From NCBI GenBank assembly GCA_000165345.1, contig CM000435.1:64001-128000 (forward strand): 64,000 nucleotides of DNA, written 5' to 3'. Shown here in pieces: positions 5,095 to 55,675 of the stretch (its first letter is position 1; each line of letters opens with the position of its first letter). The translations under genes were made by a program, and so were the position numbers. A model generated the notes under the pieces. The model made no database searches. It was not told the origin of the DNA and saw only the letters and a program-made list of their open reading frames with translations.

Positions 5095-5171
5095 ACTGCG
5101 CATGCATATTATTTAAAAAAATATTTACTACATGCGCATGTATGTGGACAGGTCAAAAAGTTGCATGCAAC
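5095..5171. promoter_or_regulatory. Cluster of GCATGC-type motifs (GCGCATGCATA, CATGCGCATGTATGTGGAC, TTGCATGCAAC) upstream of the LCCL gene
   Basis: Three GCATG(C) copies within 80 nt, 70-140 nt upstream of the ATG at 5239. Similar clusters at 12356-12437, 23695-23715, 30147-30425, 47325-47340 and 62467-62545, all 5' of genes. Confidence 0.55.
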
Positions 5172-16686: not shown

Positions 16687-18885
16687 TTATATTTCTCCTT
16701 GGTCTGTGTATACTATTTTCCCTGGAGGGTCATAATTGAATTTTGGCTCGATTTTCATAAGTTTTTTGAGAATTTCACATGCTCTTTCATCTTCAGGAGA
16801 CATATTCTCCATATTTTTGCGGGGGCTTTGTATCTGGTTCTTTTCATGAACTTGGTTTTTCTCTCCCAAGGTATCTAGATTTCCAGGTTGAGTAACTCCA
16901 TTATAAGGTTCTTCAATTTGATCATTTTGGCTCATCTTAGAAACTTTATTTTCATTATTTTCATCGAAGGCGTTATTTTCTTCTTTGAATTCCAAGTTAA
17001 GGGGGATCTTCTGATCAGTATTGGAGTTAGAAGTTTGCTCGATCTCATTCTTCAAATCTTCCTTTAGGGGTTCTAGAAGCTTTTCATGAGTAATAACTAT
17101 AATATTCTCTCCATTTTCGTGCTCTTGTGGCTTTAAGTGCAATTCCAATGTCGAAGCCTTCTCTTCACCACTTTGGTCGGAACGGACTGCAACATTTCCC
17201 GCCTGGTCATGTGGAAGTGCATGCAATTGCATGCTAAGGCTATCCTCGGATTTTGGTAGAATGGCGGGACAGTGTTCTGAAGGTGATTCGGGCATACAAT
17301 TAGAACCACATGGTTTTTTTCCGGAAATATTTTCAGGGGGGGTTTGTTGCGATGCGGAGAGGAGGGGGTTTTGATGCAAGGAGTTTATTTCAATATCTGG
17401 ATTCTGAGTCTGGTTCTCAACTTGTCTATGTGAGAATTCAGTATAGCTTGGCGAGATTGTTTGAATTTGACACTCCTCATGAGCTTCTTTGTGAGCCAAT
17501 TCTGCTGTTGTAGAAGTCTCTGTAGTTATTTGTACCTGCGTTTGATTTCTGGATTGCGTAGAGCTGGTAGAAAGTACAGTATTATTTTCATCATTTTGGT
17601 CTTCATCAGAATTACTAGAACGTTTGAGGTCTGAAATAATGATAAATGACTCAGATGTATTGTTTACACTAGAGTTAGAAAGATTTTCCGTAAATTCGTG
17701 ATCGTTTTCTGGTATTGTAGCCTCCCTTAAGCATTGAACTGGATTTATTGAAAAATCTGGGATGTTCTGGCGACCTGAATTGATCAAAGCCTGTTCAATA
17801 ATGCCTTGTTTTTCATCAAATGAAGATTCTTCTGACTGCTTAATTCTATAAAGATCAAAAGAGTAATCTTTAACAAGCAAATCTTCTCTAGGAATTTCAT
17901 CTAACTGAGGTTCTAGTTGCTGTTGATCATTGCCTTTGTTATAGCAACTATCTTTATCCTTATCTTCGTCCCCGTGTAAGAAATCTTTCGATATAACTTC
18001 ATGTTCTTCTTTTAAATTAAACTGGATCGTTTCTTTTCCATTATTATTTTGAATGATTACCTCTATATATGTAATGTTTCCATGGTGAGGCTTTGAAAAT
18101 GATACCTCTTTTTCTCTGAGAGGAATATCGTATAATGGACCTGCAGCAATATCACATCCTAGTAAACCCTTGCCTCCCCAGCCCGAATTAGGAGTTATAA
18201 ATATCTCCCTAGTAACTTCAGTCTCGGTGTTATATACAACAAGAGATAAAGGGACTTTATCATTTTTCTTAACAAATACTAAGAAGTCGTCAGTTGAATA
18301 GAATGGTCTCATTAATGTGCTGCTTGCGACTATGTAATCTTCATTTGATATCAGTCCAGCGGCCTGAGCAGGAGATGAATCTTGAATATTCACAACTCGA
18401 ATCCCTTTTGTAGATATTTCTTCCCAATGGACTCCAATACCGAGCCCAGATATTCGCTCATCGTAACTTAAGAATTGGTAAACTCTAAGGGAATTCAAAG
18501 GAGCATCAAATTCAACCATATTAGACTCAATCCCATCAACAAATGCATTCTTTCCTAGCCCATCCTTTTCAGATTCGACTGAGAATCTCCTATTAGGTAT
18601 ATTACCCTCATTATTTTCATTGTGTTTATGTGGATTAAGTATTATAGTTCTTATTCTGGTCGACAAAGAATTGTAGATATTTATTTTTACTTGATGCCTT
18701 CCAATCCCTTTCAATCTTTTCAAAAAAAAGTCATGAGAAGCATCTGAAACCTGAGTTAGAGGAACTCCATCAATCCCTACAATATAATCAAAGCTTCTTT
18801 CCAATTCTAAAAGTCTTCCAAGACTATTTTCTCCGTAATTGCATACGCGAAACCCTCCAAGTTGTTTGGTTTGCGCACCTCCCAT
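16687..18885 (-). CDS. Golgi reassembly stacking protein (GRASP) homolog, N-myristoylated, with long low-complexity C-terminal region
   Basis: 732 aa with ATG at 18883-18885. MGGAQ N-myristoylation start. Tandem GRASP PDZ-like domains (GIDGVPL..., GLGIGVHWEE..., REIFITPNSGWGGKGLLGCDIAAGPLYDIP matches the GRASP55/65 '[26 protein letters not shown]' block). Ser/Pro/Gln/Glu-rich tail. Confidence 0.75.
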   Translation of the reverse strand: MGGAQTKQLGGFRVCNYGENSLGRLLELERSFDYIVGIDGVPLTQVSDASHDFFLKRLKGIGRHQVKINIYNSLSTRIRTIILNPHKHNENNEGNIPNRRFSVESEKDGLGKNAFVDGIESNMVEFDAPLNSLRVYQFLSYDERISGLGIGVHWEEISTKGIRVVNIQDSSPAQAAGLISNEDYIVASSTLMRPFYSTDDFLVFVKKNDKVPLSLVVYNTETEVTREIFITPNSGWGGKGLLGCDIAAGPLYDIPLREKEVSFSKPHHGNITYIEVIIQNNNGKETIQFNLKEEHEVISKDFLHGDEDKDKDSCYNKGNDQQQLEPQLDEIPREDLLVKDYSFDLYRIKQSEESSFDEKQGIIEQALINSGRQNIPDFSINPVQCLREATIPENDHEFTENLSNSSVNNTSESFIIISDLKRSSNSDEDQNDENNTVLSTSSTQSRNQTQVQITTETSTTAELAHKEAHEECQIQTISPSYTEFSHRQVENQTQNPDIEINSLHQNPLLSASQQTPPENISGKKPCGSNCMPESPSEHCPAILPKSEDSLSMQLHALPHDQAGNVAVRSDQSGEEKASTLELHLKPQEHENGENIIVITHEKLLEPLKEDLKNEIEQTSNSNTDQKIPLNLEFKEENNAFDENNENKVSKMSQNDQIEEPYNGVTQPGNLDTLGEKNQVHEKNQIQSPRKNMENMSPEDERACEILKKLMKIEPKFNYDPPGKIVYTDQGEI

Positions 18886-26844: not shown

Positions 26845-28584
26845 ATGGGGGAAGATCAAGAGTGGAGTGATTCAAGTTATGTTTTAAGAAGAAAGTATCG
26901 ATTATATTGGATTGCAATATTAAGAAATGCTCCAGAAGGACTTGAAGGATTATATGATAGATTTTCAAAATGGAGCGTTTCGTTAGGATTTTCATTACCA
27001 AATTTAGTAGAAGAGTCAGAGGAGTTGTGTATACAAAGAGGGGAAAAGAAAGTTTACAAAATTAGTTTTCCATCTAGAAGCTCTACAAGAAGCTTTATAA
27101 GACTATCAAAGCGTAATATATGGAGGGAAATATCAAGAGACAGTTATAGTGAATTATATGTATATTGTGATCCTGCATATAAATTAAGGCCATTTTGTGA
27201 TTTTCAAACAATGAATTTATCAACATGTTATTGGATAATAAGAGGAATTTCTAAAGATATTGAAAACGAAGAGATGATATGGGATTTAGTAGGACGAAGG
27301 AACCAATTTGGTGAATTCTTGAGGAGAGTAGTGTACATTAGAGATGAAGAAGGAAACAATGGTTTTTGTTTCTTGCAGTTTTCCTCACCTCTAACATCAT
27401 ATAGAGCTTTAAAGTGGGAACTTAAACATTTTAAAGGATTTGAACTTGCTCACGGTAAAAAAATGTATTTAACTCCAGAATTTGTTGGTACAAGCCATGT
27501 AAAGGCATTACTACTATTATGTAGAGGATTAGATAAGTTTGAGATAAAAACACTAAAGACAGTAGAAATGAGTTTGAATGATTTAAGAAACTCTGATAGA
27601 TTAAATGGCGAAAATGCGATTTCTCATGAAAAAGTTTTGCAAGGATATTTAAACTTTTGGAAGAGATCAAATGGTTTACCAGTTCCAGTAGATAGAAACT
27701 CAGAATTTCAATACAATTATGATGAGAGGAATGAATACATGTATAGGGAAGCTCTTTATAATAGTGGGATAGATTTATTCCCAAAAAAACCGATTAGACT
27801 TTATTACTGCAAATCTTTGGATTTTCTTTGGGACTGGAATAGTCGTATTTTTATAGATTGCCAAAGTAAATCACTTTTTGAGTTTGATCCTGAACTTCAA
27901 AGTCTCAAGTTTATTTACAACTCAGGTGAATTGTCTCGATTATCGAATGTTGGGGTCGGCTCAACTTATGGCGAAATTATATGTGATAGAAATAATCGAG
28001 AAGATTTTCAAATAAAAGCACAAATTTCACAGGAAAAGCTCAAAAAAGAAAGAGAAATAAGAGTGGCCTCTTTTCTTGAAACTGCAAGGTCTCAGCTAAA
28101 TTGCAACATGAATACTAACAACATATATAAGAACTCAGTAGAAGAAGGATACGACTCAAAAAGACAGGAGATAACGCAGTTTTTCGATATTTCAAGTAAC
28201 GTAACTTACGAAAAGAGTGGAACCTATACAAGTCAAAGAACCGAGCCACGAACTCCTACTTGCCAAAACTCAAGTCCTGGGGTTCAAAGCTCATGCATAG
28301 CCAACGCATGCGCGGTTCCCGCCACATGCGAGTCTGAAAGTGTGGACGCGCGGAATATGTGCATGTGGTCAGTTTCTGATGGTGGAGTTACGGAGGGAAC
28401 AATAGGGGAGGAGATTGGTCAGGTAAAGAGTGGAAGTAAAAGCGGGGGCACAAAGGAGGAGGAGTTGATATGTTTTGTGTGTTGCAGGGCTTTTGGATCG
28501 ATTTGGGAAAAAGTGAATCATGAACAAAATTCATTGTTGCATAAGTATAATCTGGAGATATGGAAGGTTGGGAGCGAGCGATAG
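26845..28584 (+). CDS. Hypothetical protein with C-terminal U1/matrin-like C2H2 zinc finger (possible RNA-binding protein)
   Basis: 579 aa with ATG at 26845. A weak RRM-like segment (FCFLQFSSPLTSYRALK). C-terminal CFVCCRAFGSIWEKVNHEQNSLLH fits a CX2CX12HX6H zinc-finger spacing. GAGA/G-rich motifs lie upstream. Confidence 0.5.
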   Translation: MGEDQEWSDSSYVLRRKYRLYWIAILRNAPEGLEGLYDRFSKWSVSLGFSLPNLVEESEELCIQRGEKKVYKISFPSRSSTRSFIRLSKRNIWREISRDSYSELYVYCDPAYKLRPFCDFQTMNLSTCYWIIRGISKDIENEEMIWDLVGRRNQFGEFLRRVVYIRDEEGNNGFCFLQFSSPLTSYRALKWELKHFKGFELAHGKKMYLTPEFVGTSHVKALLLLCRGLDKFEIKTLKTVEMSLNDLRNSDRLNGENAISHEKVLQGYLNFWKRSNGLPVPVDRNSEFQYNYDERNEYMYREALYNSGIDLFPKKPIRLYYCKSLDFLWDWNSRIFIDCQSKSLFEFDPELQSLKFIYNSGELSRLSNVGVGSTYGEIICDRNNREDFQIKAQISQEKLKKEREIRVASFLETARSQLNCNMNTNNIYKNSVEEGYDSKRQEITQFFDISSNVTYEKSGTYTSQRTEPRTPTCQNSSPGVQSSCIANACAVPATCESESVDARNMCMWSVSDGGVTEGTIGEEIGQVKSGSKSGGTKEEELICFVCCRAFGSIWEKVNHEQNSLLHKYNLEIWKVGSER

Positions 28585-32499: not shown

Positions 32500-33717
32500 T
32501 TATTTATTTAATAGTCTCATATACTCAAAAGAAATATCTGACATATTTCTAATGGGAACAAAAAGGTCAGAATTCAAAAAAGAGGTTTTCTTTTGAAATT
32601 TCTTTTCTTCTAAAAGTCTGACATTTTCTGGAATATTGAATTGAGTTGATTGAACAATTACATGGTTTAATGAATCAAAATATAATCTACAAGTTTTCTT
32701 TAGCTCATCTGATAATAATAAAGTTGAAATATGTGTATAACCAAAAGTTGTTGGTGAAAGTTTTTTTCCCCAATATCTATTGTAGAATCTTTTTAATAAA
32801 CTTAATAATATGCCATTTGGATACAAAATTAAAATTTCATTAAGTTCGTTTTTTAGGTCTATTAGTTTATTATGTAATGATTTTTTTTCTAATCTATTAA
32901 TTAATGCTGAGCAGTTTGAATCATCATTAGGAGTTTCATTACTTTCAATTTGATCAACATCCATTGATAGTGCAGCAGCAGCAATCTTTACACATGTGCA
33001 TCTCGGCTTTAAAACATTATTTTCATATTGTAGAATTCCTCCATTAATAGCAAGTTGAACTAGATGGGACAATTCCCCCAATGATAGATCTTCTAATTGA
33101 GAGATTTTTGCCTTATGTATTTCCATAGCTACTCCATATCTTCCGCCTTTAAATTGATATCTAAGTAAATCAGGCTCAATTTGAGAATTTGAATAATTTG
33201 AATTTAGAGGTATTAATAAAAAATCTGATTCACTTTCTTTTTGATTTATAATTAATTCATGACCTTTGGAATCTATTGAGTAATTATTTGAATTATTTAT
33301 TGTATTTGAACCATTAATATTACTTTCTCCTTTAACACAGACTAAGTTATTAATATATTGTAAAAATCCACTCCATATTTCATGGGAATAAGGATTATTC
33401 GGATTTTTTGGATCAATCCAATGGTTATCTGGAACATTTAAATTTCTAAAATAAATCTCTCCATTACTAAATAATAGGAACTCTTCTTCATTTTCTGTTA
33501 AATCTTTTACTAACATTTGCAAGTTATAATTTGCACCTAAATCTACACGTTCTTTTAATCTTCTAATAAGTTCTTGAAGATGTGGTCTAGTTCTATCTAT
33601 ATAAAGTGATTTAAGTGCATCCTTAATTAAATCCAATCTTCTTTCTTTCCAGAATTCCGGTCCAGGTCTCATTACTACCGTCCCTGTTCCTGTTCCTGTT
33701 CTTGTACCTATACCCAT
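32500..33717 (-). CDS. Hypothetical protein; possible OST-HTH/LOTUS-like RNA-binding domain near C-terminus
   Basis: 405 aa with ATG at 33715-33717. Starts MGIGTRTGTGTGT. The C-terminal segment LKRFYNRYWGKKLSPTTFGYTHISTLLLSDELKK resembles the OST-HTH pattern (..yGkkl.p..fGy.kl.dll). Assignment is weak. Confidence 0.45.
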   Translation of the reverse strand: MGIGTRTGTGTGTVVMRPGPEFWKERRLDLIKDALKSLYIDRTRPHLQELIRRLKERVDLGANYNLQMLVKDLTENEEEFLLFSNGEIYFRNLNVPDNHWIDPKNPNNPYSHEIWSGFLQYINNLVCVKGESNINGSNTINNSNNYSIDSKGHELIINQKESESDFLLIPLNSNYSNSQIEPDLLRYQFKGGRYGVAMEIHKAKISQLEDLSLGELSHLVQLAINGGILQYENNVLKPRCTCVKIAAAALSMDVDQIESNETPNDDSNCSALINRLEKKSLHNKLIDLKNELNEILILYPNGILLSLLKRFYNRYWGKKLSPTTFGYTHISTLLLSDELKKTCRLYFDSLNHVIVQSTQFNIPENVRLLEEKKFQKKTSFLNSDLFVPIRNMSDISFEYMRLLNK

Positions 33718-35422: not shown

Positions 35423-38400
35423 CTAGTTTGGTTGTTTTTCTTCGATTGTGTGTTCTCTTTGTTTGAAATTAGTGTCAGATACATGTTGAATAATTTTTAA
35501 GTTTAAAGAATATTGGTTATTAGAATTAAATGAAGGATTATGCGGATTTTGATTATTATAAAAATTGAATAAATATTGGAAAATAAGTTCATCAATAGAA
35601 TTATGTATAATAAAGTTCCAAATATGTGGGGTTTTAGTTTGACCCATACGAATAATTCTACCAATAGCTTGTAATTCATCAGATTTATTTAAAAGAGGAC
35701 TAACAAAAATGATATGATTTGCTGCAGTAATATTAACTCCTTTTCCAACATTTAAATGATTACATAAAAGTACTCTGTAATTTATATCTATTGAATTTTC
35801 TGAAGATGAGAATTCTCTGATAATATGATATTCAGATTTACCACCACAATATTTTTTAAAAAGTATTTCATTTAAATGCATAGCAGATGAAAGAATATCA
35901 ATAACAGGTTGAAAATCAGAAAAGATGATAATTTTATCATTATTATTATTTAATATCCATTTAATATGTTTAATAATAGCTTCTATTTTAGTTCCAAAAT
36001 TTCCAAGTATTTCTATTGATTGTATTGTATTAAAATAATCAATACCAAAATCTACTTGATTTGGTTTATTTAATGATTCATTAATTAAAGATGTTGAAGA
36101 ATTAATATTATTTTCTAGATTATTTTCTTTTATTATATTATGATTATCATTATCAGGTACTATTAAAACAACATTTGTATCTTGAAAATTCAATCTACAT
36201 TTAGGGCATTGATTCTTAAGTTTATGATTAGATGATGATTTTTTACTAATTAATTTATAACAATCAATACAAATGATATGAGCACAAGGTAAAAGAACTT
36301 GTGAATAATCATCTTTTAATTTATTTAAACATATTGGACAAATATCATGATCTTGATTTTCTTCTTTCTCTTTTTCATGATCTTTTTCTTGTAAAATTTC
36401 ATTTTTCCAATCTTTTTTAGATCTTTGTTGTAATTTAAGATGACAAAGAAATTTTTGTTGTGATTTTAGATTTCTTCTTACACCAAGAGCAGATATACGT
36501 TCAGATTCATATTTTTCTATTAAAAATGGAATTTCACTTATATGTATAATATTATTATGATTTGAAGATGAATTTGATTGATTATTTTGAATTATTTGAA
36601 TTCTTTGTTTACAATCAATAAGTTCTAAATAAGAATTAATTAATTGTCTAGTAGCTGATACAAATGCTTTAATATTATAAAGTTCAATCTTTAAAGATTC
36701 AATATACTTGATATGTTTTGTTGAAATCTTTGAAATAGAAGAAAAATCATCCATTTCATTCAATTCTTGTTCTTGTTCTTGTTCTTGTTCTTGTTCTTGT
36801 TCAAATTCTAATTCTTTTTCTTCATCTTTTGAGTTAGATCCTGATTTAAAGAATTTTTTTCTTAATTCTTTGTTTAAAAACTTTAAGATTGCAATAGTTT
36901 CTGAATCTCTTAAATATGTAGAATCATGATGAATTATTTTGTTTTGTTGATTATTATCAATTTCTATACTATGGTTATTATTACTACTTTCACTAAGCCT
37001 TGTAAAAGTTTTCTTTTTTATAGTATATAGTGAATATTCTAATTCTTCAATATGGGTTTGTATAATACAAAATATACAAGATTCTTGTTTTTGAATAAGT
37101 TTATTATTCTTTTTTCCTATATTTTTCTGTTGATTATCTTCTATTTGACTATTTTGTCCTTGTTGACAGAAAAAGCAAGATGTGACTTTTGCAATGATTT
37201 CATCAAGAATTAGTTGGGATTTTATATTTTGGTTTTGGTTTTGGTTTTGGTTCTGGTTCTGGCTCAAATCCAAGTTTTGGTTCTGGTTCACATCCAAGTT
37301 CTGGTTCACATCCAAGTTTTGACTTTGGTTCACATCCAAGTTCTGGTTTTGGTTTTGGTTCTGGTTCACATCCAAGTTCCGGTTTTGGTTCACATCCAAA
37401 TTCTGGTTCACATCCAAATTCTGGTTCACATCCAAATTCTGGCTCACATCCAAATTCTGGCTCACATCCAAATTCTGGCTCACATCCAAATTCTGGCTCA
37501 CATCCAAATTCTGGCTCATACTTTGGCTTGAACACGTATTTTGATCTTGGATATTATTAAACCTCAATAGTTCTAGTTGTTTTAGCTGGTGTAAAAGTTT
37601 TGTTCGAGATTCTTGCATTTGCTTAACTTTGAGATCTAAAGTAATAATGAGACCATGAATACTATTAAAACTTGGTAAATTATGTTCAATGTTACCATCT
37701 TTTGCACTCTTAAATTCATATTGAAAATTCTCAATCCTATCTAATAAAAGATCCTCTTCACTGATTCCTCCTTTAGTAGACATATTAAACTTTTTTTTAA
37801 ATATATACCACCAATGATCATCAGAATATAATGAATTTGCTTTATCTTTAGATTTAATAAACAAATCATGTTTTTCTATATATTCTTTAAAATATTTACT
37901 TCTATATTTATTTTCAAGATCATTACATTCTTTCATTAGTTCTTTTTTCTCCAATTCATCATTGCATATTTCTCCAAGATTCCATAATGTATGTATTTGT
38001 TGCAAAACATCGACTCTATCTTCCTTACGAATATCAAGTACTTGCTTATAATAGAAAACTGACTTGTTCATTTGCATATTATTATTATTATTATTATTAT
38101 TATTATCATCATCATCATCATATTTGGACTTTTTTGTAAAATGAATACCTGCTAAACCTAAAGTATTCATGACATATTTTCTTACACTTTCTTCAATATC
38201 AATTCTACATTTATTTAATAATTTATCTAAAATCTGATCCATAGTCATAATCTTTAATCCTGTATTTAAAGAAACAATACCCGTATCATTATGATTATCT
38301 AAATTATAATATTTACTATCATCATCTTTATTTTTATTATGGATACCCATAATACCTAATTGTGGATGTATACAAGCAAGTCTTAACATTGTAATCAATG

Positions 38401-41400
38401 AATCCATTTCTTTCTTATTTCTTAAAAAACTTTCTTGACTTTTATAATTAATTATACTATTATAACCTGATTCACATTGTTTTATATAAAAGAATCTTTC
38501 TACTGAAGATAAACTTAAATAAGTATTTCCATAAAATGCTGGTGGTATACATATTTCCTCTTTTACTTGTTTCATTTCTCTCCTGTAAAATAATGAACCT
38601 ACAACATACTCTAAATGTTGTATTAAATTCATCATTGAAATATACTCATTAGTTATATAATCCAAACCACTTTCACATACAAACCATCTTTCTTCCTTTA
38701 GTAACTTTTCCTCAGTTAAGAGCTCTTTTTCATTCTCATTCATATGATTGGGGTCCTTGGGTTGATTTTGGGGTCGACTTTGGGAGTAATCTTGATCCTC
38801 AGCTCGATCTTGGGATTGGTCCTCAGCTTGTTCTTGGGATTGATCCTCGACTTGATCCTCGACTTGATCCTCAGCTCGAACCTCGGCTTGATCCTCAGAT
38901 CCACCTTGAAATTCTGTATTACCTTTGTTAGACTTAATATACAATATACTAGACAAGTATCCAATATACTTTTTATATAAAGTGTCATTAATTAAATCAA
39001 ATCCAACATTTGAAAGATTTAATAATAAACCAATCAAATCATTTGAACAAGATCTAACAATTGGAGTACCAGAAACACACCATTTATTATAACATATTAA
39101 TTTACTTGTCATTTTTGAAACAAGAGAATAACCTTCAGTCATTTGAGCTTCATCTAAAACTATTCTCCACCAATCAATATTAGTAATTAAAGATGCTAAA
39201 ATAGGATAACTTTTTTTAAATCTCATTGATCTTTTGTTTGTAATAGTATTTTGATCTAATACATGATATATTTCTTCTTTTAAAATTTCATATGATGTTA
39301 AAACTACATCATAATTTAAAATATCTCTTCTAGTTAATATTATTCCATTATTATTAGTCATTGAATCTAAATTAATATCTTTATTATTTAATTTATTTAA
39401 TGCTCTATTTTTCAAATAATTTTGTATATATCTTACTCCTTGATATTTAACAACTTTAAGTCTTCCTTTTTCTAAATGTTTATTAAATTCATCATACCAT
39501 TGATCTACAATACTTCCAGGAGCTATAATTAAAGTAGCTTTTACTATTAATCTCTCATTTAATTCAATACTTTGACATAATGAACAAAGTAAATTAATAT
39601 TATCTAAATGATTAAAATTCATTATATTATCACTTATACAACATTCAAAGTGAAATTTAACTTGACATTTTTTACATTCTACTATATTATAATCTTTAAA
39701 AGGCTTAAAAACTCCACATGGACATTCAATTTCTATATTGTTATTATTATTGTTATCTTTGTACTTAAAAATAGGAAGAGAAGAATTTTTTTTAAAACAT
39801 TCTTCTTTATTATTCAAATTCAAATAATAATAATATTCTTTTCTTGGATTCATTAAAATTAAAGTAATAATCTCCAAACTTTTACCTAATCCCATTTCAT
39901 CACATAGAAATCCTCCTCTTATAGTAAAATGACCACCTCCTGATGGTAAAATATTGAAAGAAAGTTCACCTGTTATCATATTAAAATAAAGTAAATCTTG
40001 TTCATTTTCTTCTTTTTTTGGTATTTTTAAACAATACCAATATGGTGGATATTCAATATTTAATTTTACTGTTTCTTTTTCAACATTTAAAGCAAACAAA
40101 ACTGCATCTTTTTGGTAATTTCTTAACTCAGAAACTAAACCTAAATGATTATTCCAATCGTGATTTTGTTTTATTGTAGAAGAAGAAGATCCCATTCTTT
40201 TCATGGATATATTATATTCTTGAAATATTGAATATAACTCATTTGGCTTAATTTGTATTGTTTGAAAGGAATTTTTTTTATTTTTGATTTGATTATAAGT
40301 ATAATTTTCAATAGATGGAAGCTTAAGTTCTTCATTAAGCCATGAGAATAAGATTTTGAAGCTATTTTTACCATCTTTTTTTCTAGATAACAATTTTCCA
40401 TCTAAAGAAGTTCTATTTAAATACATTTTAATATTCATATTTAATACGATTCCTTTAGATCTCGAGCAATTACTAGAGGTTGTGGTGATGGAATTTGCAG
40501 TATTGGAGTTTGAAGTGTTGGAGTTCGCAGTATTGGAATTTGCAGTGTTGGAGTTTGAAGTGTTGGAGTTCGCAGTATTGGAGTTTGAAGTGTTGGAGTT
40601 CGCAGTATTGGAATTTGCAGTGTTGGAGTTCGCAGTATTGAAATTTGCAGTGTTGGAGTTCGCAGTATTGGAGTTTGCAGTGTTGGAATTTGTAGTATTG
40701 AAATTTGCAGTGTTGGAGTTCGCAGTATTGAAATTTGCAGTATTGGAGTTCGCAGTATTGAAATTTGCAGTATTGGAGTTTGCAGTCCCAAAGTTTGCAG
40801 TGATGGAATTTGAAGTGTTGGAGTTCGCAGTATTGGAATTTGAAATATTGGAGTTTGAAGTGCTGGAGTTCGCAGTATTGGAATTTGTAGTCCCAGAGTT
40901 TGAAGTATCAGAGTTTACAATGCTAAAGTTTCTTATATTATAACTATAACTTTTCTTTACACCCAATATTTCACAAGTAAAAGTTATAAATCCTGCATCT
41001 TGTAATAATATTAGTGCCTTTCTAACATTAAAATATGGTATTTTTGGTTTTAAATTTAACCAACTTATTGTTCCTCGTCCTAAAATACCTTCTTTTATAT
41101 TTAATTCATCATATTCTATATTTTCTTTCTCAAATTTATCATTCAATATCACAAATTCACATTTAGATTTATTTTCTTCTAATAATCCAATATGTACAAT
41201 AAACTCTTTATTTTGATCATTTAAAGAATTCATAATTTCTATAAAATCAATATTTTCATTTTCTTGAATAATTGTTATTTTAATATTTTCCCATATATTT
41301 AAACAACAAATTAAATCATTTAATTTGGTTATTATCTGTCTTTTATTATATTTTATTCCTAATTCTTCTTTTTTATTCAATTTTTTTGGCTTTTTTAAAT

Positions 41401-41551
41401 CTAAATCCAAATCTAAATCATTATCTAAATCCAATTTTAAATCCAAATTATTCTCTTCTTTCTTTAAATTATCTTCTTCTAAAATAAAATATTCTTTATC
41501 TTGATATAAAACTCCTCCATATCTCAATGGTTTTGCTTTAAATCTAACCAT
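35423..41551 (-). CDS. SNF2-family DNA-dependent ATPase with PHD and C3HC4 RING fingers (SHPRH/Rad5/Rad16-like), greatly expanded by low-complexity repeat insertions
   Basis: The tracked ORF begins at a TTG (41557). The ATG at 41549-41551 gives MVRFKAKPL. SNF2 N-lobe LCDEMGLGKSLE, APGSIVDQW, DEAQ box (WWRIVLDEAQMTE). PHD-like CPCGVF...CKKCQVKFHFECC...CSLCQ. RING CPICLNKL...LPCAHIICIDCYKL...CPKCR. Helicase-C block LLCNHLNVGKGVNITAANHIIFVSPLLNKSDELQAIGRIIRMGQTK. Repeat arrays (NSNTA)n, (NLDVSQ)n, (EDQ[AV])n and (EQ)n are all in frame. Confidence 0.85.
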   Translation of the reverse strand: MVRFKAKPLRYGGVLYQDKEYFILEEDNLKKEENNLDLKLDLDNDLDLDLDLKKPKKLNKKEELGIKYNKRQIITKLNDLICCLNIWENIKITIIQENENIDFIEIMNSLNDQNKEFIVHIGLLEENKSKCEFVILNDKFEKENIEYDELNIKEGILGRGTISWLNLKPKIPYFNVRKALILLQDAGFITFTCEILGVKKSYSYNIRNFSIVNSDTSNSGTTNSNTANSSTSNSNISNSNTANSNTSNSITANFGTANSNTANFNTANSNTANFNTANSNTANFNTTNSNTANSNTANSNTANFNTANSNTANSNTANSNTSNSNTANSNTSNSNTANSNTANSNTSNSNTANSITTTSSNCSRSKGIVLNMNIKMYLNRTSLDGKLLSRKKDGKNSFKILFSWLNEELKLPSIENYTYNQIKNKKNSFQTIQIKPNELYSIFQEYNISMKRMGSSSSTIKQNHDWNNHLGLVSELRNYQKDAVLFALNVEKETVKLNIEYPPYWYCLKIPKKEENEQDLLYFNMITGELSFNILPSGGGHFTIRGGFLCDEMGLGKSLEIITLILMNPRKEYYYYLNLNNKEECFKKNSSLPIFKYKDNNNNNNIEIECPCGVFKPFKDYNIVECKKCQVKFHFECCISDNIMNFNHLDNINLLCSLCQSIELNERLIVKATLIIAPGSIVDQWYDEFNKHLEKGRLKVVKYQGVRYIQNYLKNRALNKLNNKDINLDSMTNNNGIILTRRDILNYDVVLTSYEILKEEIYHVLDQNTITNKRSMRFKKSYPILASLITNIDWWRIVLDEAQMTEGYSLVSKMTSKLICYNKWCVSGTPIVRSCSNDLIGLLLNLSNVGFDLINDTLYKKYIGYLSSILYIKSNKGNTEFQGGSEDQAEVRAEDQVEDQVEDQSQEQAEDQSQDRAEDQDYSQSRPQNQPKDPNHMNENEKELLTEEKLLKEERWFVCESGLDYITNEYISMMNLIQHLEYVVGSLFYRREMKQVKEEICIPPAFYGNTYLSLSSVERFFYIKQCESGYNSIINYKSQESFLRNKKEMDSLITMLRLACIHPQLGIMGIHNKNKDDDSKYYNLDNHNDTGIVSLNTGLKIMTMDQILDKLLNKCRIDIEESVRKYVMNTLGLAGIHFTKKSKYDDDDDNNNNNNNNNMQMNKSVFYYKQVLDIRKEDRVDVLQQIHTLWNLGEICNDELEKKELMKECNDLENKYRSKYFKEYIEKHDLFIKSKDKANSLYSDDHWWYIFKKKFNMSTKGGISEEDLLLDRIENFQYEFKSAKDGNIEHNLPSFNSIHGLIITLDLKVKQMQESRTKLLHQLKQLELLRFNNIQDQNTCSSQSMSQNLDVSQNLDVSQNLDVSQNLDVSQNLDVNQNLDVNQNLDVNQNRNLDVNQNQNQNQNLDVNQSQNLDVNQNLDVNQNQNLDLSQNQNQNQNQNQNIKSQLILDEIIAKVTSCFFCQQGQNSQIEDNQQKNIGKKNNKLIQKQESCIFCIIQTHIEELEYSLYTIKKKTFTRLSESSNNNHSIEIDNNQQNKIIHHDSTYLRDSETIAILKFLNKELRKKFFKSGSNSKDEEKELEFEQEQEQEQEQEQELNEMDDFSSISKISTKHIKYIESLKIELYNIKAFVSATRQLINSYLELIDCKQRIQIIQNNQSNSSSNHNNIIHISEIPFLIEKYESERISALGVRRNLKSQQKFLCHLKLQQRSKKDWKNEILQEKDHEKEKEENQDHDICPICLNKLKDDYSQVLLPCAHIICIDCYKLISKKSSSNHKLKNQCPKCRLNFQDTNVVLIVPDNDNHNIIKENNLENNINSSTSLINESLNKPNQVDFGIDYFNTIQSIEILGNFGTKIEAIIKHIKWILNNNNDKIIIFSDFQPVIDILSSAMHLNEILFKKYCGGKSEYHIIREFSSSENSIDINYRVLLCNHLNVGKGVNITAANHIIFVSPLLNKSDELQAIGRIIRMGQTKTPHIWNFIIHNSIDELIFQYLFNFYNNQNPHNPSFNSNNQYSLNLKIIQHVSDTNFKQREHTIEEKQPN
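37210..37535. repeat. Imperfect 18-nt tandem repeat (GTTCACATCCAAGTTCTG-type) encoding the (NLDV[SN]Q)n/(NQ)n array inside the SNF2 gene
   Basis: Periodicity is visible directly (ttctggttcacatccaagtt... repeated more than 15 times). It stays in frame in the minus-strand CDS. Confidence 0.8.
38760..38900. repeat. 12-nt tandem repeat (GATCCTCGACTT-type) encoding (EDQ[AV]E)n inside the SNF2 gene
   Basis: cttgatcctcgacttgatcctcgacttgatcctcagctcg... Periodicity is visible and in frame. Confidence 0.75.
40455..40920. repeat. 15-nt tandem repeat (TGCAGTATTGGAGTT-type, about 30 copies) encoding the pentapeptide (NSNTA/NFNTA)n array inside the SNF2 gene
   Basis: agtattggagtttgaagtgttggagttcgcagtattggaatttgcagtgttggagtt... 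about 465 nt of 15-nt units with third-position variation. No stop codons in the CDS frame. Confidence 0.85.
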
Positions 41552-42360
41552 CTTCAAAAAAGTGATAAGAAGAAGAAAAAAAAAAAAAAGAAGAAATAAA
41601 AGAAAAAGAATAAGTGGAGGAAGAGGAATATGAATAAGAAGAAGATGAAGAAGATGAAGAAGAAGAAGAAATATAAATCTCTAACTCACATTAATTAAAA
41701 ATATAAAATGATAATTTTCCATTCAAATCCCTAAAAACTCTTTTTCACTTTTAATATGTATCCAAAAATATTAGATTTATATCTATTTTAAATACTAGTA
41801 ATCTGGATATCAAATATTATATATATTTTCACCATTAAATAAAATATATTTAAATATTCATTAATATATCATTAATATACCAAACTTTTATTTAATATCT
41901 AAAAAATAATTTTTTACTTTTTTTTTTTTTTTTATAATATAATTTTTTTTTTATATAATACATTACCGGTATACAAGAAATAAATTTATGATTAATTGTG
42001 CAGCAGATTACCGCCAAACACGTGTTATATTGATTATCTCATTTTAAAAACAAATAATATAAATAATGAAAAAAACGAATAAAAGGATTAAATGAGTAAA
42101 GTGAATACAATATTTATAGAAAACAATAATATTTTAAATAATTGTATTTGAATGAAAAATTGTTAAACTCTTGTTTGGATTTCAGTTACTTTAAATTATT
42201 AAGGTGGAAAAAAAACAAAGAAAAAAAGTTAAGTTAAAAAAAAAAAAAAATAATCTATTAAAACAATTTTAAAGATCCAAGATAAAATAAAATTATTAAT
42301 TAATAATACAATATTTAATTTATTTGATTTCTAATTTCTTATTTCAATAAAAAAAAAATT

Positions 42361-50900: not shown

Positions 50901-51836
50901 ATTCGACAATTTATGAATGAAGGAAAAATTGTTGGAATGGTTGGCGATGGAACAAATGATGTTGCTGCTGTTAAAGATTCCAATCTGGGAATATTTGTTA
51001 ATAAAAATGGAAGTTTAAGTAGCCATTTTTCTTTGGATAAAGGGGATTTAAATGGAATATTAAGTATTATTCGAGAGGGATGCGGGTGTGCTGCTAATTC
51101 ACGTTCATTGTACTTGTTCATGATTATGTATGGATTCACAATTGTAATTTGTAAGAATATTTTATTATATTCTGGACAAGCAACTCTTCCAACTATGGGG
51201 TACTTTTATTATAGTATTTTTGTAAATTTTCCAAGTGTATGGGGAATAAAAAGAAGCAGGCCTGCAAATAAGATTAAAAAGTATCCTGTAGATGCAGGAT
51301 TGGTATCAAGGAGCTCCATATTGACTGTTATTTGTTTTGTTTCTGTTATTGGAATCAACCTGGGTGTCGTATTGTTTTTGTTATCAAATAAGTCATGGTT
51401 TGTTTCTAGTTATACAAGAAATTTGGGAATTCCAATTTTCATTTCTGCACGCCAAGATGGATTTGAATCATCCACGACTTTAATTTGGATGTGCTCTTTG
51501 CATTCGCATATGGCTCTGATTTTTGGAATGGGAGGATATCACAGAGAACCTTTTTATAAAAATAAAGTTCTCGTTTCTACGTGGTTTTTAGCACAGCTTG
51601 GGCTTTTATTTCTAATTTTTTCGGAGCCAAGTCTCATTACATGCTTCTTTAAAATTAACTGTCAAGAAGGCATAACTCCTGGAACTTTATTTGGTATGAA
51701 TATCCCAAAATTCTCGAGTAGCAATGTTTTCCCATTTTCTTGGAAGTTTGAGCTCGTTGGATGGATAGCTGCTTCCTTCCTAATTTGCATATTTATTTAT
51801 CGCAAATTAAACTTCAATTCAGCTTCCAAAATTTGA
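47961..51836 (+). CDS. Divergent P-type (E1-E2) ATPase, subfamily not assignable from motifs
   Basis: 1291 aa. Phosphorylation site FFDKTGTLTMND. Actuator-like SSLTGEATP. Hinge GMVGDGTNDVAAVKDSNLGI. At least 10 predicted TM segments. Long N-terminal extension. The TM4 motif LLPIWAP does not match the canonical P2 (PEGLP), P4 (PISL) or P5 (PPxxP) signatures. Confidence 0.75.
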   Translation: MKLGIFGDIYSTFFPIDLCIKLLIFTISILLFFYIANLIIWRRYDKHTYKHQSFEMILIPCRKNIYSNIFRCTLNFLTAVHLILIPLVTYDSVSAPESSSILYWRKKAEVFLVEYVVALIICIGRKLFTQRIRLTLIMPSNLFDCNFVCLWVRDNNNINNNHNHDHNTNDNIIQSINKDPSYSTLNKKFLNFYKKSLAFLDGEMTGFKYYGCHIQTDESSGIRYFIAGSTRFVFSIETGTFLPQIQSSRVSVNQIENALNCGGHSEASVISYLSVFGKNELPYETEPALLVMKRIFFCPTFILQYLMLSTTFFLRFFTWSFCWSALILYTNLFSFFKDIFRNRKLLKETHEINNRPVKVIRGNIKKSIKASDIVLFDIVLSETGDIAPCDMILMEKLVLVDESSLTGEATPVFKKPLDLSALSNSQILSASDNILKDSLIHAGCKIIKVFGGDESNDSLISVVLNTGVFTFKSKILRTVSQNMISDDFHNDIPLLWLLTLSVASVVITVQCLISQFNIGSIFFILGTLLQLLPIWAPAFVQSCINSSVSTLKNDKNVESSYPRRILFASKLDTLFFDKTGTLTMNDYVLDNVERLNSDLLEDQGFFTGNERYSERIVRGINGEKIDILKMAISTCHSLSFVPDQGDGGYYGDSIEKEMLKFTRSCIYEKSSLNDRSLRRFVFEKGAEFDLENIYRSHNTANLEKKLSKGCEILKIFDFNGVSRSMSVIVRCNVTDRVFLFTKGASESILKFSIKNQSTEEIEFRTSKLSSSGFYVIIIAYRELKSDKESIELYRLLNESERINFEVDLIPVGILCFSNCIRKEAPFIIKEIKDLGIKPIILTGDNSDCALCVAKQVGIINSQFKVSNIEAKLNLCEIDLNSHQIAVLCCIISGKLVFLNEFRHEIDLEEVIKNLNKIRLVVTFESYEMMSKTILHNYEGIVNPLKNDSKQAFLSNETLLDLFKNNISVISRANHINKQSVIRQFMNEGKIVGMVGDGTNDVAAVKDSNLGIFVNKNGSLSSHFSLDKGDLNGILSIIREGCGCAANSRSLYLFMIMYGFTIVICKNILLYSGQATLPTMGYFYYSIFVNFPSVWGIKRSRPANKIKKYPVDAGLVSRSSILTVICFVSVIGINLGVVLFLLSNKSWFVSSYTRNLGIPIFISARQDGFESSTTLIWMCSLHSHMALIFGMGGYHREPFYKNKVLVSTWFLAQLGLLFLIFSEPSLITCFFKINCQEGITPGTLFGMNIPKFSSSNVFPFSWKFELVGWIAASFLICIFIYRKLNFNSASKI

Positions 51837-52450
51837 ACCAGTAATTAAAACCATGGCCTTGAATGTTATTTTATCTATTGGAAAATTATATTTACTCGTT
51901 AAGCTTGTTTTAAATAACATTCTCTATACATAAAATAATCCAATAAAATTTGGAAAGCAAATAAAAGTTTTGTATTGAAAACTTTTTTTTTGGTTTGATA
52001 ATAAAATTTAACTTGAGAATTTTGGATTCAACTTGTGCTTTTTGGGTTTTTGTATATTTAATTTGAATTTATCTTTTTGTAGAAAACTCCTAAATTAATA
52101 ACATTAGTAAACTTATTTGATTTAGCTTTGTAAAGTATTCTTTTATTTTCATAAGACTCTTTCCATATAAAGATGAATTTTTAAATAGAAAAAAATAAAC
52201 AAAACTCTAAATTTCTAATACTTGATTAATTCCTAATGAATAAAATGGTTAAAAAAGTCAACACAGACTAATGCATTGCGCGCCTTCCATGTGGACGCGC
52301 ATGCAAAAACTTTTTAGAGCACATGCGGAAACGCCAGTAAAAAAAAAGGAAAATCAGTACCGGTGTAAACGTGTGAAAACAAATAAACTAAAAACTTGAT
52401 TGCATGCAAAAAATTCCAATAAAATTATGAATTTGGAGCATTTAAATTAT

Positions 52451-54785: not shown

Positions 54786-55675
54786 CTTTAATATAAAAAA
54801 AATAAATAAATGCTTTGAAAACAAAAATTCGCTTTAATTAAACTTAATTAAATAATAGTGATTCTTATCTCTTTTTTTGTCCTCTAATAATTATACATGT
54901 GTGGATTTCTGTACGCAAAAAAATATCTTTAATATCCATAATATTTTTATTATTTAAATTTATCTTTAATTAGGTATGCTTACGTTACTAGGCGGGCATC
55001 ATGTTTTGTTTATTTTAGATTTTTTTTTATTCAAAAATACCATATTTTTTTCTGGAATCTCATTCTTTAAATATAATTCCAAGAAATTATCAATGTTAAT
55101 TCAACTAACCCTACTGACTAGCTTGCTTGCTTGCAGTTTACATTATTTATATACCCTTCGATATCAAAATTTTGATTATCTTAAAGCTAATTGTGATAGC
55201 TTATCCACCCCTTTACCCCTCTAATTATAAGATTTTAATTCTTAATTATTGCATGTAAATACCGGTATGCAATTTTTGCAAAAATAGTCGTATTATTATT
55301 TTTTATATTTTGCATCAATTTTTTTTTCTTTTTAAATAAAAATTGTCCACATTAAATTTTTAAATTACGTGTGAATTTATCAAAAAAATATATATTTTAT
55401 TTCACGGATTCTTGAAATTATGAAATAAAAATTAGGAATAATTTATAAGAACGTAGAAATAATAATAATAATACTAATACACAAGCTATTTGAATGTTAA
55501 AGTATTTTTCAAAATTTAACTGAATTTAATAATTTTGAAAAATATTTTGCAAGTAAATATTTGAGCGCACAGATATAATTAAAAACAAAAAATTAAAAGT
55601 GAAAAATAATTAACTTTTTTTTTTTTTAATCGTTATCAAGGGAATTAAAAGTGGAATATAGATATTTTTATCAAA

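Follow-up and report, generated by a model that had tools for sequence, protein, structure and literature searches.

A conserved promoter-like module without a protein-coding target downstream of the MDH gene of Cryptosporidium parvum

Introduction

How Cryptosporidium regulates its genes is poorly understood, and because the genome is compact, every conserved non-coding block is informative. The closest described systems are the upstream regions of the C. parvum lncRNAs, of which 396 were catalogued by Li et al. (2021; PMC7840661). These transcripts are mostly antisense and mostly cover the 3′ end of the sense mRNA, and the motifs lie within 100 bp upstream of them. Five MEME motifs were described in these regions: E2F/DP1, ApiAP2_1, poly-T, a CCCATACCAGGTGGA type and TTGTCCACATK (PMC7840661). 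A later set of 766 lncRNA genes is contained in the CpBGF annotation. Elements of the ApiAP2_1 and E2F types are also known from mRNA promoters of C. parvum (Mullapudi, 2007, PMC1779779; Oberstaller, 2013, PMC3734150; Oberstaller, 2014, PMC4117751). In Toxoplasma gondii, YGCAUGCR is enriched at annotated mRNA 3′ boundaries, with an AU-rich motif 10–40 nt downstream (Holmes et al., 2021; PMC8354455), and motifs alone are therefore not promoter-specific evidence, a point that was overlooked in an earlier note on the DNA analyzed here. The module described below is most likely a promoter-like element of a kind already described in C. parvum, of which the example downstream of MDH is new. If it were merely one more promoter of an antisense lncRNA, it would add an example to a class that is catalogued in hundreds.

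Results and discussion

The window, i.e. the entire stretch of 64 kb that was analyzed, belongs to chromosome 7 of C. parvum IOWA II and contains, in this order, the genes for P-type ATPase 3, malate dehydrogenase (MDH; cgd7_470) and LDH (cgd7_480); the upstream length of its LDH gene, 890–891 bp, is that of cgd7_480. The ATPase and MDH genes both end at a convergent spacer of 614 bp between their stop codons (51837–52450), and C. parvum CpBGF has an identical MDH protein and an identical whole spacer on chromosome 7 (GCA_035232765.1). In that record (CP141124.1) the spacer occupies 156,732–157,345, the offset from window coordinates being 104,895. Among the nine convergent spacers of the window, the promoter words of the cluster are confined to the two long ones, 51837–52450 and 31710–32499; the other seven measure 4–356 bp and have none. 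The spacer at 31710–32499 carries an AP2 and E2F cluster that abuts the stop codon of a minus-strand gene.

The whole conserved module extends over 52264–52391 on the + strand, corresponding to 157,159–157,286 of CpBGF chromosome 7 (CP141124.1), as delimited by the nhmmer envelope of a six-species profile, and lies 30–165 nt beyond the stop codon of MDH (cgd7_470). At its left end, a TGCAT half site of the ApiAP2 type overlaps TTGCGCGCC, which is of the E2F/DP1 type (52272–52284, unstranded; core CGCGCC at 52279–52284). It is followed by CATGTGGACG (52288–52297, + strand), the reverse complement of motif 5 of Li et al. (TTGTCCACATK; PMC7840661, table S3), and by CGCATGCAAAAA (52298–52309, unstranded), a YGCATGCR ApiAP2_1 site that directly abuts the ATGTGGAC word. 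A second CATGC word and a GC(C/A)AGT word make up CACATGCGGAAACGCCAGT (52320–52338, + strand), next to an A-run (A9 GG A4; 52339–52353, + strand), which, read on the other strand, is the counterpart of poly-T motif 3 (PMC7840661). The adjoining TCAGTACCGGTGT (52354–52366, + strand; consensus TCARTACCGGYGT) resembles the ATACCGG core of motif 4 of Li et al., instances of which are CCCATACCGGCGTTC and CCTATACCGGCTGTC. Towards MDH follow the A-rich tail AAACGTGTGAAAACAAATAAACTAAAAACTTGA, containing ACGTGTGAA (52367–52399, + strand), and TTGCATGCAAAAAA (52400–52413, unstranded) with a perfect TGCATGCA palindrome 43–50 nt from the MDH stop codon. Exact 8-mer matches to the ApiAP2_1 consensus ([T/C]GCATGC[A/G]) are CGCATGCA at 52298–52305 and TGCATGCA at 52401–52408. 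Between 52272 and 52413, all five motif types found upstream of lncRNAs by Li et al. (2021) are present.

The earlier note had pointed to promoter-like words in this spacer, all of which are present, CATGTGGACGCGCATGCAAAA at 52288–52308, GCACATGCGG at 52319–52328 and TTGCATGCAAAA at 52400–52411, apart from a slight misquotation of the first: 52274–52285 reads CATTGCGCGCCT, whereas AATTGCGCGCCT is the copy at 35251–35262. Common to both sites is the 11-mer ATTGCGCGCCT, which starts at 52275 and 35252. The words of the note were found elsewhere in the window in unambiguous 5′ contexts (2341, 5081–5169, 30145, 30393 and 55250–55352) and in none of the seven short convergent spacers. A fixed motif grammar, sought in the other promoters of the window, did not emerge. 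Compared to shuffled sequence, the words are enriched in the window, with 14 observed copies of TGCATGCA (0.72 expected), 22 of GCATGC (4.6 expected) and 12 of SGCGCS (0.96 expected). All but one of the 14 TGCATGCA sites fall outside long ORFs. When 150-nt segments were scored with literature-defined words, 52256–52405 ranked top in the 64 kb and only 0.03% of the segments scored as high, with a word list that was chosen after seeing the region. The GC content of 52270–52369 (44%) corresponds to the 99th percentile among fully intergenic 100-nt segments.

An ordered core consisting of ATGTGGAYG, CATGCAAA, TGCAAGT, an A-run and then TCARTACCGGYGT is found at the same site in six species of the intestinal clade: C. 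parvum, C. ubiquitum, C. canis, chipmunk genotype I and the two Logan species L014sp and L004sp. Default MAFFT on 250-nt flanks misaligned the core, and an anchored local alignment was used for the module; the resulting six-species alignment A2 has 34 invariant columns. A search by nhmmer with the six-species profile matched only the orthologous site of each species (E 4.6e-16 to 3.5e-22), and neither the window nor the complete set of loci contained a paralogue of the whole module, the remaining matches being weak and partial and several of them located upstream of LDH. The core ends 84 nt from the MDH stop codon in C. parvum and 30–84 nt from it in the other species. The module thus stays near the MDH stop, and only the spacing towards the ATPase gene is variable. 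A looser version, which has the same orientation in C. xiaoi and C. bovis, consists of TGTGGGAC/TGTGTGAC, then CATGCAAA/ACATGTAAA, GCATGCA and an A-rich stretch. The MDH-side module is entirely absent from the 3.7-kb spacer of C. muris, and the ENA contig L015, which ends 101 nt after the stop codon, gives no information on it.

Within the module, conservation differs from word to word. Invariant across the six species are ATGTGGA.G within CATGTGGACG, CATGC within CACATGCGGAAACGCCAGT and, except for the R and Y positions, TCARTACCGGYGT. The E2F/DP1 core CGCGCC is shared by C. parvum with chipmunk genotype I alone, and the other four species have (G/T)TGCATTT in its place. The ApiAP2_1 site at 52298–52309 occurs in C. 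parvum and C. ubiquitum and reads GCATGT in chipmunk genotype I. The single CATGCAAA copy of the other three species aligns with the next word instead, CACATGCGGAAACGCCAGT being aligned with CATGC-AAA-GTGCAAGT of C. canis, L014sp and L004sp; an insertion of 21–24 nt (alignment columns 35–58) in the lineage of C. parvum, chipmunk genotype I and C. ubiquitum duplicates the CATGC word. The position of the A-run is A-rich in five of the six species, and L014sp has GGGGGGAAAAAA. The tail is identical in chipmunk genotype I, where a 49-nt perfect match with C. parvum covers it, and elsewhere only A-rich. The stop-proximal TGCATGCA palindrome is lineage-specific, with TGCATG in chipmunk genotype I, GCATGCAAAA nearer to the stop codon in C. 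ubiquitum and no counterpart in C. canis.

The species that share the module are considerably diverged: in four of the five relatives, the ATPase proteins are 70–83% identical to that of C. parvum. Across all 614 bp of the spacer, the identity between C. parvum and chipmunk genotype I is 0.76 compared to 0.70 at four-fold sites of MDH, and the corresponding values for C. parvum and C. ubiquitum are 0.59 and 0.64. Judged by sequence comparison, the spacer outside the core is unalignable or evolving neutrally. Conservation of the module takes the shape of blocks of 5–11 nt that are separated by variable spacers.

This shape, together with the lack of RNA structure and of Rfam or tRNA matches, is the pattern of binding sites and not that of an RNA gene. 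The earlier note had seen no ORF in the spacer, and 51837–52450 contains only ORFs of at most 42 aa, none of which is conserved; the longest of them, with 42 aa, falls on the motif cluster. When the orthologous spacers of seven other Cryptosporidium species were searched by six-frame tblastn, chance-level matches only were obtained (best E = 0.41). A structured small ncRNA such as an snRNA, snoRNA, SRP, RNase P or MRP RNA, for which the earlier note had suggested a search, did not materialize, as Rfam covariance models at gathering thresholds gave no match in the whole 64 kb. A relaxed scan of 51700–52600 returned three chance-level matches (E 0.55–7.7), two of them within the MDH coding sequence, and ARAGORN detected neither tRNA nor tmRNA. 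Single-sequence folds of both strands were not significant (z-scores −1.46 and −1.0), and RNAalifold on the six-species block gave four pairs (−1.98 kcal/mol, covariation term +0.47), i.e. essentially no consensus structure. Taken together, the missing Rfam and tRNA matches and the missing stable fold or consensus structure indicate that the module is not a structured RNA gene. The conserved block, with about 100 nt and restricted to the genus, does resemble the 43 novel intergenic is-ncRNAs reported from C. parvum, which are mostly 70–200 nt long and conserved within the genus (PMC9465071). Nevertheless, given the weak folds, the absence of Rfam families at threshold and of tRNAs, the internal indels of 21–24 nt that the block tolerates and the short, unconserved ORFs, we regard it as very improbable that the block represents a structured ncRNA gene of small or intermediate size (snoRNA, snRNA-like or a novel is-ncRNA) or a short protein-coding gene.

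The suggestion of a promoter-type cluster without a plus-strand gene is borne out in that a genuine, selectively maintained DNA element resides at the 3′ end of MDH and has no protein-coding target. We hold with moderate confidence that a DNA-level cis-regulatory module resides in this interval and most likely serves as an RNA polymerase II promoter of a putative non-coding (antisense) transcript. The compact array of predicted transcription factor sites, in which ApiAP2-type TGCAT/GCATGC words are combined with a lineage-specific E2F/DP1 site, ATGTGGAC and TCARTACCGGYGT, would be bound by the corresponding factors and could direct initiation by polymerase II on the + strand, antisense into the 3′ end of MDH. 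As no transcript sequence or structure is conserved, the putative transcript would probably act on MDH through the process of transcription or through antisense pairing.

The match to the upstream regions of the lncRNAs of Li et al. (2021; PMC7840661) concerns the words, i.e. E2F/DP1, ApiAP2_1 GCATGCA, poly-T/A, the ATACCGG type and GTCCACAT, as well as the location: a position at or close to the place where a sense protein-coding gene ends is a criterion of that class, and the module is situated just past such an end, with no coding potential downstream. The composite of abutting GTCCACAT and GCATGCA is found both in the module and upstream of Cp_lnc_311 and Cp_lnc_329 (PMC7840661). In contrast to most catalogued lncRNAs, which have a single motif type, the module unites five types within about 130 nt. 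Cross-species conservation of promoters was no part of PMC7840661, whereas the core of the module is conserved in six species and is known from sequence alone. Similarly, the exact YGCATGCR, which is the binding-site consensus of cgd2_3490, and [C/G]GCGC[G/C] link the module to described mRNA promoter elements of C. parvum, and the words also occur upstream of genes in the window including LDH; unlike those elements, the module has no protein-coding gene downstream on either strand.

Among the listed entries of the 2021 lncRNA catalogue and its motif table, in which a control k-mer from Cp_lnc_295 was found, there was no match to any of 19 k-mers taken from module and spacer, from the antisense sequence of MDH and from the 3′ end of the ATPase gene. 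Most of these k-mers were searched in both orientations, and two of the three sites in the MDH body as + strand, i.e. antisense, sequence only. Cp_lnc_265, annotated as antisense to 'a P-type ATPase', was rejected as a candidate, since it belongs to a different gene outside the window. By title and abstract, the three papers found for cgd7_470 deal neither with antisense transcription nor with lncRNAs, and full-text mentions of cgd7_460/465 or cpbgf_700046x/47x were not found. Further points argue against a promoter of antisense transcription: it would by itself leave the excess of about 450–590 nt of this spacer over typical convergent spacers unexplained, and AP2 motifs were reportedly missing from the ATAC-seq peaks of C. 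parvum sporozoites.

Alternatively, the module may act at the RNA level or co-transcriptionally in 3′-end formation or termination of MDH transcripts, by analogy with YGCAUGCR near the mRNA 3′ boundaries of T. gondii. Consistent with such a role, the sense strand of MDH has UUGCAUGCAA 43–52 nt after the stop codon in a U-rich region (AT skew −0.33), the module tracks the MDH stop codon in every species, and several other GCATGC clusters of the window are located 50–390 nt after stop codons. With the Toxoplasma element, the module shares the 8-mer and its position shortly after a stop codon, with U/A-rich sequence coming next on the sense strand of MDH. However, GCATGC is absent from the seven short convergent spacers, i.e. 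from 14 gene ends, and is thus not a general 3′ signal in the window, and the conserved part of the module is made up of other words and the E2F site, whereas the stop-proximal TGCATGCA is not conserved. Moreover, ATGTGGAC, TACCGGYGT and the E2F site are motifs of the DNA type, which upstream of LDH also stand in an exclusively 5′ context. The MDH strand has its first canonical AAUAAA only about 300 nt downstream, beyond the module, and for T. gondii itself the authors left the role of YGCAUGCR unresolved (PMC8354455). We therefore consider a function as MDH 3′-end signal quite unlikely.

The 5′ context upstream of LDH contains a twin of the module (55262–55351, − strand), which has the same word order on the opposite strand and is located in the divergent spacer 470–566 nt upstream of the LDH ATG, at 160,157–160,246 of CpBGF chromosome 7. 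Preceded by CACACGTAA, its words are ATGTGGACA, an A-run, TTGATGCAAA, TTTTGCAAA, ATACCGGTAT and TTACATGCA, and it is conserved in chipmunk genotype I, C. ubiquitum and C. canis. The ordered pair TGTGGA[CT]..TACCGG occurs in the window only at the twin and at 52290–52363 (P(≥2) = 0.024 by permutation of site placement). Twin and MDH-side module have in common the order of ATGTGGAC, a GCATGCAAA-like word, TGCAA(G) and ATACCGGY, the ACGTGTGAA of the module tail and the species in which they are found; they differ in strand, in spacing (about 90 nt in the twin vs 47–74 nt) and in that the twin resides in a genuine 5′ divergent spacer. Because the similarity is limited to words, common descent of the two is not shown. 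As the twin has the same order in inverted orientation, the two copies bracket the LDH–MDH pair, in C. canis and C. ubiquitum as well as in C. parvum.

LDH and MDH are central to the fermentative metabolism of the parasite. The bracketing arrangement raises the question whether the module, acting at a distance or as a boundary (as enhancer, insulator or part of a gene loop), is paired with the inverted LDH twin and has no stable transcript of its own, so that the same factors at both ends of the LDH–MDH unit would co-regulate the two dehydrogenase genes. Besides the bracketing in three species and the scarcity of such ordered pairs in the 64 kb, the position of the twin, which is far from the LDH ATG for a core promoter, is compatible with this idea. 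Looping or insulation was, however, not found in the literature surveyed, the twin may belong to the neighbouring 214-aa gene with which the divergent spacer is shared, the common words are ordinary promoter vocabulary, and C. muris lacks the MDH-side module completely. To our knowledge, neither looping nor insulation has been described for Cryptosporidium, and we know of no CTCF-type boundary proteins in apicomplexans. Such a paired distal element thus appears improbable to us, and we are equally doubtful that module and twin form a functional pair in which the same putative factors, reading ATGTGGAC and ATACCGGY, delimit the LDH–MDH unit. If they did, the pair could constitute a promoter–terminator gene loop, an insulator-like bracket or a pair of sense and antisense promoters, by which two fermentation enzymes might be toggled between life-cycle stages, and it would represent an orientation-dependent domain architecture in an apicomplexan.

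Irrespective of the reading, the module is small, sharply defined and phylogenetically footprinted, and combines the ApiAP2 word TGCATGCA and an E2F site, which represent the two motif classes that are known best, with the orphan words ATGTGGAC and TCARTACCGGYGT. Since it has no possible protein-coding target and contains known as well as orphan words, it is a clean test case for the questions whether motif clusters at 3′ ends are antisense promoters or 3′-processing signals in C. parvum, which proteins read the two orphan words, and whether a pair of elements, one at either end of the locus, controls LDH and MDH.

For the preferred reading as a promoter of non-coding transcription, orientation cues weakly favour the + strand, antisense into MDH. 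TGTGGAC followed by GCATGCAA points to the gene in one unambiguous tandem promoter (5141–5169, ATG at 5239) and points towards LDH in the twin. Another weak cue is the closeness to the MDH stop codon that the module retains across species. Motif 5 has the same orientation relative to the lncRNA as in the module in nine of 13 instances (PMC7840661, table S3), and two of these nine, Cp_lnc_311 and Cp_lnc_329, have the composite of motif 5 and GCATGCA 11–79 nt upstream of the TSS. The + strand downstream of the module is A-rich (AT skew +0.33), which fits a 5′ leader and a U-rich MDH 3′ UTR equally well. The two best motif-4-like instances of table S3 would, by their orientation, favour a minus-strand transcript.

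These ATACCGG-type instances of Li et al. are one of several observations that fit a promoter on the minus strand, which would produce a short intergenic ncRNA or tiny-ORF RNA with its body from 52263 to about 51900, arranged head-to-tail behind MDH and converging on the 3′ end of the ATPase gene. A transcript of this kind would explain why the spacer has 614 bp while most convergent spacers are much shorter, and the only other long one likewise has its cluster at the stop codon of a minus-strand gene. In addition, the left part of the spacer keeps a length of 452–585 nt in the four species for which it was measured, although its sequence turns over, and promoters of this genome are often reported to be bidirectional. 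On the other hand, the putative transcript body has no conservation beyond the neutral level and no conserved ORF, k-mers of the stretch from 52263 to about 51900 are absent among the listed FASTA entries of the 2021 lncRNAs, the composite of ATGTGGAC followed by GCATGCA is oriented in the opposite way (in front of the gene at 5239 and in the nine of 13 motif-5 instances), and GCATGC words are retained by C. xiaoi and C. bovis although their spacers of 229–234 bp leave no room for such a transcript. Transcription from the minus strand is therefore possible but rather unlikely in our view. The AT-rich rest of the spacer (51837–52263, unstranded), which has no conserved ORF and evolves at an approximately neutral rate, may comprise the ATPase 3′ UTR and the body of a minus-strand non-coding transcript, or may be plain spacer. 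Within it, a block at 51937–52011 is 84% identical between C. parvum and chipmunk genotype I and contains AATAAA and TGTA.

Genomic context of the module

The module, a cluster of promoter-type words at approximately 52264–52413, lies in a window of about 30% GC with tightly packed ORFs and few introns. CDP-diacylglycerol synthase (45702–47054, +) and P-type ATPase 3 (47961–51836, +) are followed by MDH (cgd7_470, 52451–53401, −), LDH (cgd7_480, 53820–54785, −) and a 214-aa gene (55676–56320, +). The MDH ORF and the entire adjoining spacer are identical to CP141124.1 of GCA_035232765.1, the T2T assembly CpBGF of Cryptosporidium parvum IOWA II (chromosome 7 coordinate = window coordinate + 104,895, strand unchanged). 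The LDH upstream spacer of 890 bp agrees with the 891 bp given for cgd7_480 (Mullapudi et al., PMC1779779). The ATPase-MDH region 51837–52450, described in the earlier note as free of ORFs, contains none longer than 42 aa. Seven of the nine convergent spacers in the window measure 4–356 bp and contain no module words, which occur only in the two long ones, 31710–32499 (790 bp) and the MDH-side spacer (614 bp). The genomic context of the module really is anomalous.

At the other end of the spacer, C. parvum and Cryptosporidium sp. chipmunk genotype I share 84% identity over 51937–52011, a block 100–175 nt past the ATPase stop that contains AATAAA and TGTA. This block is plausibly the ATPase polyadenylation region, in which case approximately 52010–52260 would have no assignment. 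Models of the ATPase gene disagree (L012 4001–8198 in chipmunk genotype I, and L005 7566–11276), and its length is 1236 aa in the CpBGF model versus a 1291-aa ORF called in other assemblies. The chipmunk model of 1343 aa overruns an in-frame stop at L012 7888, which closes an ATPase C-terminus homologous to that of C. parvum.

Promoter words and their enrichment

The words quoted from the spacer in the earlier note are in place except for one misreading: 52274–52285 is CATTGCGCGCCT and not AATTGCGCGCCT, of which a genuine copy is located at 35251–35262, the 11-mer ATTGCGCGCCT being common to both. In the window, TGCATGCA occurs 14 times versus 0.72 expected, GCATGC 22 times (4.6 expected) and SGCGCS 12 times (0.96 expected), and the enriched words lie almost entirely outside coding sequence. 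When 150-nt windows were scored with literature words (AP2_1, ACATGY, E2F and motifs 4 and 5 of Li et al.), 52256–52405 ranked first in the 64 kb, a ranking that is illustrative and no formal test, since the word list was picked after the region had been seen. The GC content of 52256–52405 is at the 99th percentile of intergenic sequence. At 35246–35262, AATTGCGCGCCT is directly adjoined by TGCATG, approximately 160–175 nt past the stop of a 2044-aa gene (35423..41557, −), within a 1.7-kb spacer of 17% GC whose next start codon is about 1.5 kb away.

Conservation and kind of element

We compared the syntenic ATPase-MDH-LDH loci of C. canis, C. felis, C. xiaoi, C. bovis, C. ryanae, C. muris, chipmunk genotype I, C. 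ubiquitum and two species from Logan assemblies. Synteny is kept throughout. The non-gastric species have MDH-ATPase spacers of 614, 612, 667, 673, 662, 485, 331, 234 and 229 bp, and C. muris has one of 3.7 kb. Six intestinal-clade species carry an ordered core at the same site, consisting of (G/T)TGCAT, ATGTGGAYG, CATGCAAA, (G/T)TGCAAGT, an A-run and TCARTACCGGYGT, and ending 30–84 nt from the MDH stop. A profile search with these blocks matched orthologous sites only (E 4.6e-16 to 3.5e-22). The ATPase proteins of core-bearing species are 70–83% identical to that of C. parvum (contig L004, from a Logan assembly, ends before the ATPase). Identity to C. parvum over the whole spacer and at MDH four-fold sites is 0.76 and 0.70 for chipmunk genotype I, and 0.59 and 0.64 for C. 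ubiquitum. Outside the module the spacer is neutral or unalignable, and blastn and six-frame tblastn of the spacer against orthologous spacers found nothing beyond the module words.

In C. xiaoi and C. bovis, a looser module keeps its orientation, with TGTGGGAC/TGTGTGAC followed by CATGCAAA/ACATGTAAA, GCATGCA and an A-rich stretch, and in C. felis and C. ryanae the vocabulary is kept in rearranged order. Near the MDH stop of C. muris the module is absent. The C. muris RN66 spacer (L011 6961–10637) has 18–27% GC, no called gene, no ORF above 145 aa and a single TGCATGCA, 1.47 kb from the MDH stop. Within the six-species alignment, the E2F-type site TTGCGCGCC is limited to C. parvum and chipmunk genotype I, and a 21–24 nt insertion (columns 35–58) that duplicates the CATGC word is found in these two and C. 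ubiquitum.

The conserved pattern consists of blocks of 5–11 nt, and the intervening spacers tolerate indels. The earlier note had suggested a scan for structured ncRNAs; no Rfam family reached threshold, and a tRNA search found none. RNA folding energies of the module were unremarkable (z-scores −1.46 and −1.0), and RNAalifold predicted four pairs in the conserved block (−1.98 kcal/mol), which covariation does not support. RNA-gene tests, folding and block-wise conservation speak against a structured ncRNA gene or a coding gene, either of which we consider highly improbable. Short conserved blocks together with negative RNA-gene tests are instead characteristic of clustered sites at which proteins bind DNA. 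The module is very probably a real, selectively maintained regulatory element acting at the DNA level.

An inverted twin upstream of LDH

The divergent spacer upstream of LDH repeats the module words, with their order kept but the strand reversed, from 55351 down to 55262 (−), 470–566 nt upstream of the LDH ATG. This twin reads CACACGTAA, ATGTGGACA, an A-run, TTGATGCAAA, TTTTGCAAA, ATACCGGTAT and TTACATGCA; the words corresponding to the module are ATGTGGACA, a GCATGCAAA-like word, TGCAA(G), ATACCGGY and CATGCA, with CACACGTAA ahead of them. It is kept in chipmunk genotype I, C. ubiquitum and C. canis (other loci: L001 4013–4108; L013 11395–11484). The ordered pair TGTGGA[CT] and TACCGG, at most 130 nt apart, occurs at only two sites in the window, the module and the twin (site-placement permutation, P(≥2) = 0.024, C. 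parvum alone). As the two are mutually inverted, they bracket the LDH-MDH pair, also in C. canis and C. ubiquitum. The twin shows that the vocabulary of the module, and its order, are those of a genuine regulatory region at a 5′ end.

Relation to lncRNA promoters and mRNA 3′ ends

In C. parvum, cgd2_3490 binds [T/C]GCATGC[A/G], several AP2 domains bind TGCAT, and E2F-type sites predominate in promoters and sporozoite ATAC-seq peaks. Of 396 catalogued lncRNAs, approximately 92% are antisense, most overlie the sense mRNA at its 3′ end, and five motifs occur within 100 bp upstream of lncRNAs: E2F/DP1, ApiAP2_1, poly-T, CCCATACCAGGTGGA and TTGTCCACATK (PMC7840661). A later CpBGF annotation lists 766 lncRNA genes. 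The module holds at least one instance of all five motifs; CGTCCACATGG is the reverse complement of 52287–52297, and TCAGTACCGGTGT is similar to the instance CCCATACCGGCGTTC of Li et al. The locus had no match among the listed entries of the lncRNA FASTA and motif table of Li et al. (2021), in which a control k-mer was found. By analogy, the module would belong to a known class, lncRNA-type promoters at 3′ ends that combine AP2 with E2F motifs. Two observations are modestly new: the orphan words ATGTGGAC and TCARTACCGGYGT are deeply conserved, and twin modules in inverted orientation lie on either side of LDH-MDH.

The main conceptual rival is that the module would serve as 3′-processing signal of MDH: mRNA 3′ boundaries in Toxoplasma are enriched in YGCAUGCR (PMC8354455), and this word occurs in the module. 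As most C. parvum lncRNAs overlie the 3′ ends of sense genes, 'upstream of lncRNA' is confounded with 'end of mRNA'. The 14 gene ends in short convergent spacers of the window contain no GCATGC, and the conserved part of the module consists mostly of other words, which are also found in pure 5′ context. On these two grounds we consider 3′-processing possible but less probable than a promoter function. Several head-to-tail spacers contain AP2/E2F clusters (12357–12437, 23684–23774, 47331–47342) approximately 125–390 nt past the upstream gene's stop and 600–880 nt from the downstream gene's start, so that the ambiguity between promoter and 3′ end arises genome-wide.

Possible direction of transcription

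That the module would act as promoter of non-coding transcription, on either strand, is in our estimate an even call, and the narrower version of this reading, in which transcription on the + strand would run antisense into MDH, is proposed only tentatively. The other promoters in the window do not share one fixed motif grammar. Several weak cues suggest the + strand: the composite of ATGTGGAC followed by GCATGCAA faces the gene in the sole unambiguous tandem promoter (5141–5169, ATG 5239) and faces LDH in the twin; of 13 motif 5 instances in table S3 of Li et al., 9 are oriented as in the module, two of these being abutting composites 11–79 nt upstream of lncRNA starts; and across species the position of the module follows the MDH stop, not the ATPase stop. 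Other cues favor a minus-strand intergenic transcript, as about 450 nt of extra spacer is unexplained by an antisense promoter alone and ATACCGG-type instances in table S3 have the orientation opposite to the + strand cues. AT skew is compatible with both strands.

Other word clusters in the window

The 31710–32499 spacer contains a cluster at 32396–32451 with CTGCATGCAT, ACATGCAAAA and TTTTGGCGCCAAAA, 50–100 nt past the stop of a gene at 32500..33717 (−), in the same layout as behind MDH, and a 58-aa hydrophobic ORF (32035–32211, −) lies downstream of it. Two clusters lie within ORFs and may be intragenic or antisense promoters: 17190–17290 with TTTCCCGCC, CATGTGGAAGTGCATGCAATTGCATGC and GGCGGGAC in ORF 16687..18885 (−), and 28306–28370 with GCATGC, CGCGCG and CATGTGGTC in the final 280 nt of ORF 26845..28584 (+). 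K-mers downstream of 17190–17290 had no match among the listed lncRNA entries of Li et al. (2021). No ORF of at least 120 aa lies within the final 2.7 kb of the window (61253–64000), where a small gene, a spliced gene or an ncRNA may have gone unrecognized; at 62472–62550, TTTGCATGCATT and the composite TTGCATGCATTCCACATG are upstream of the nearest long ORF, whose start (61252) is approximately 1.2 kb away.
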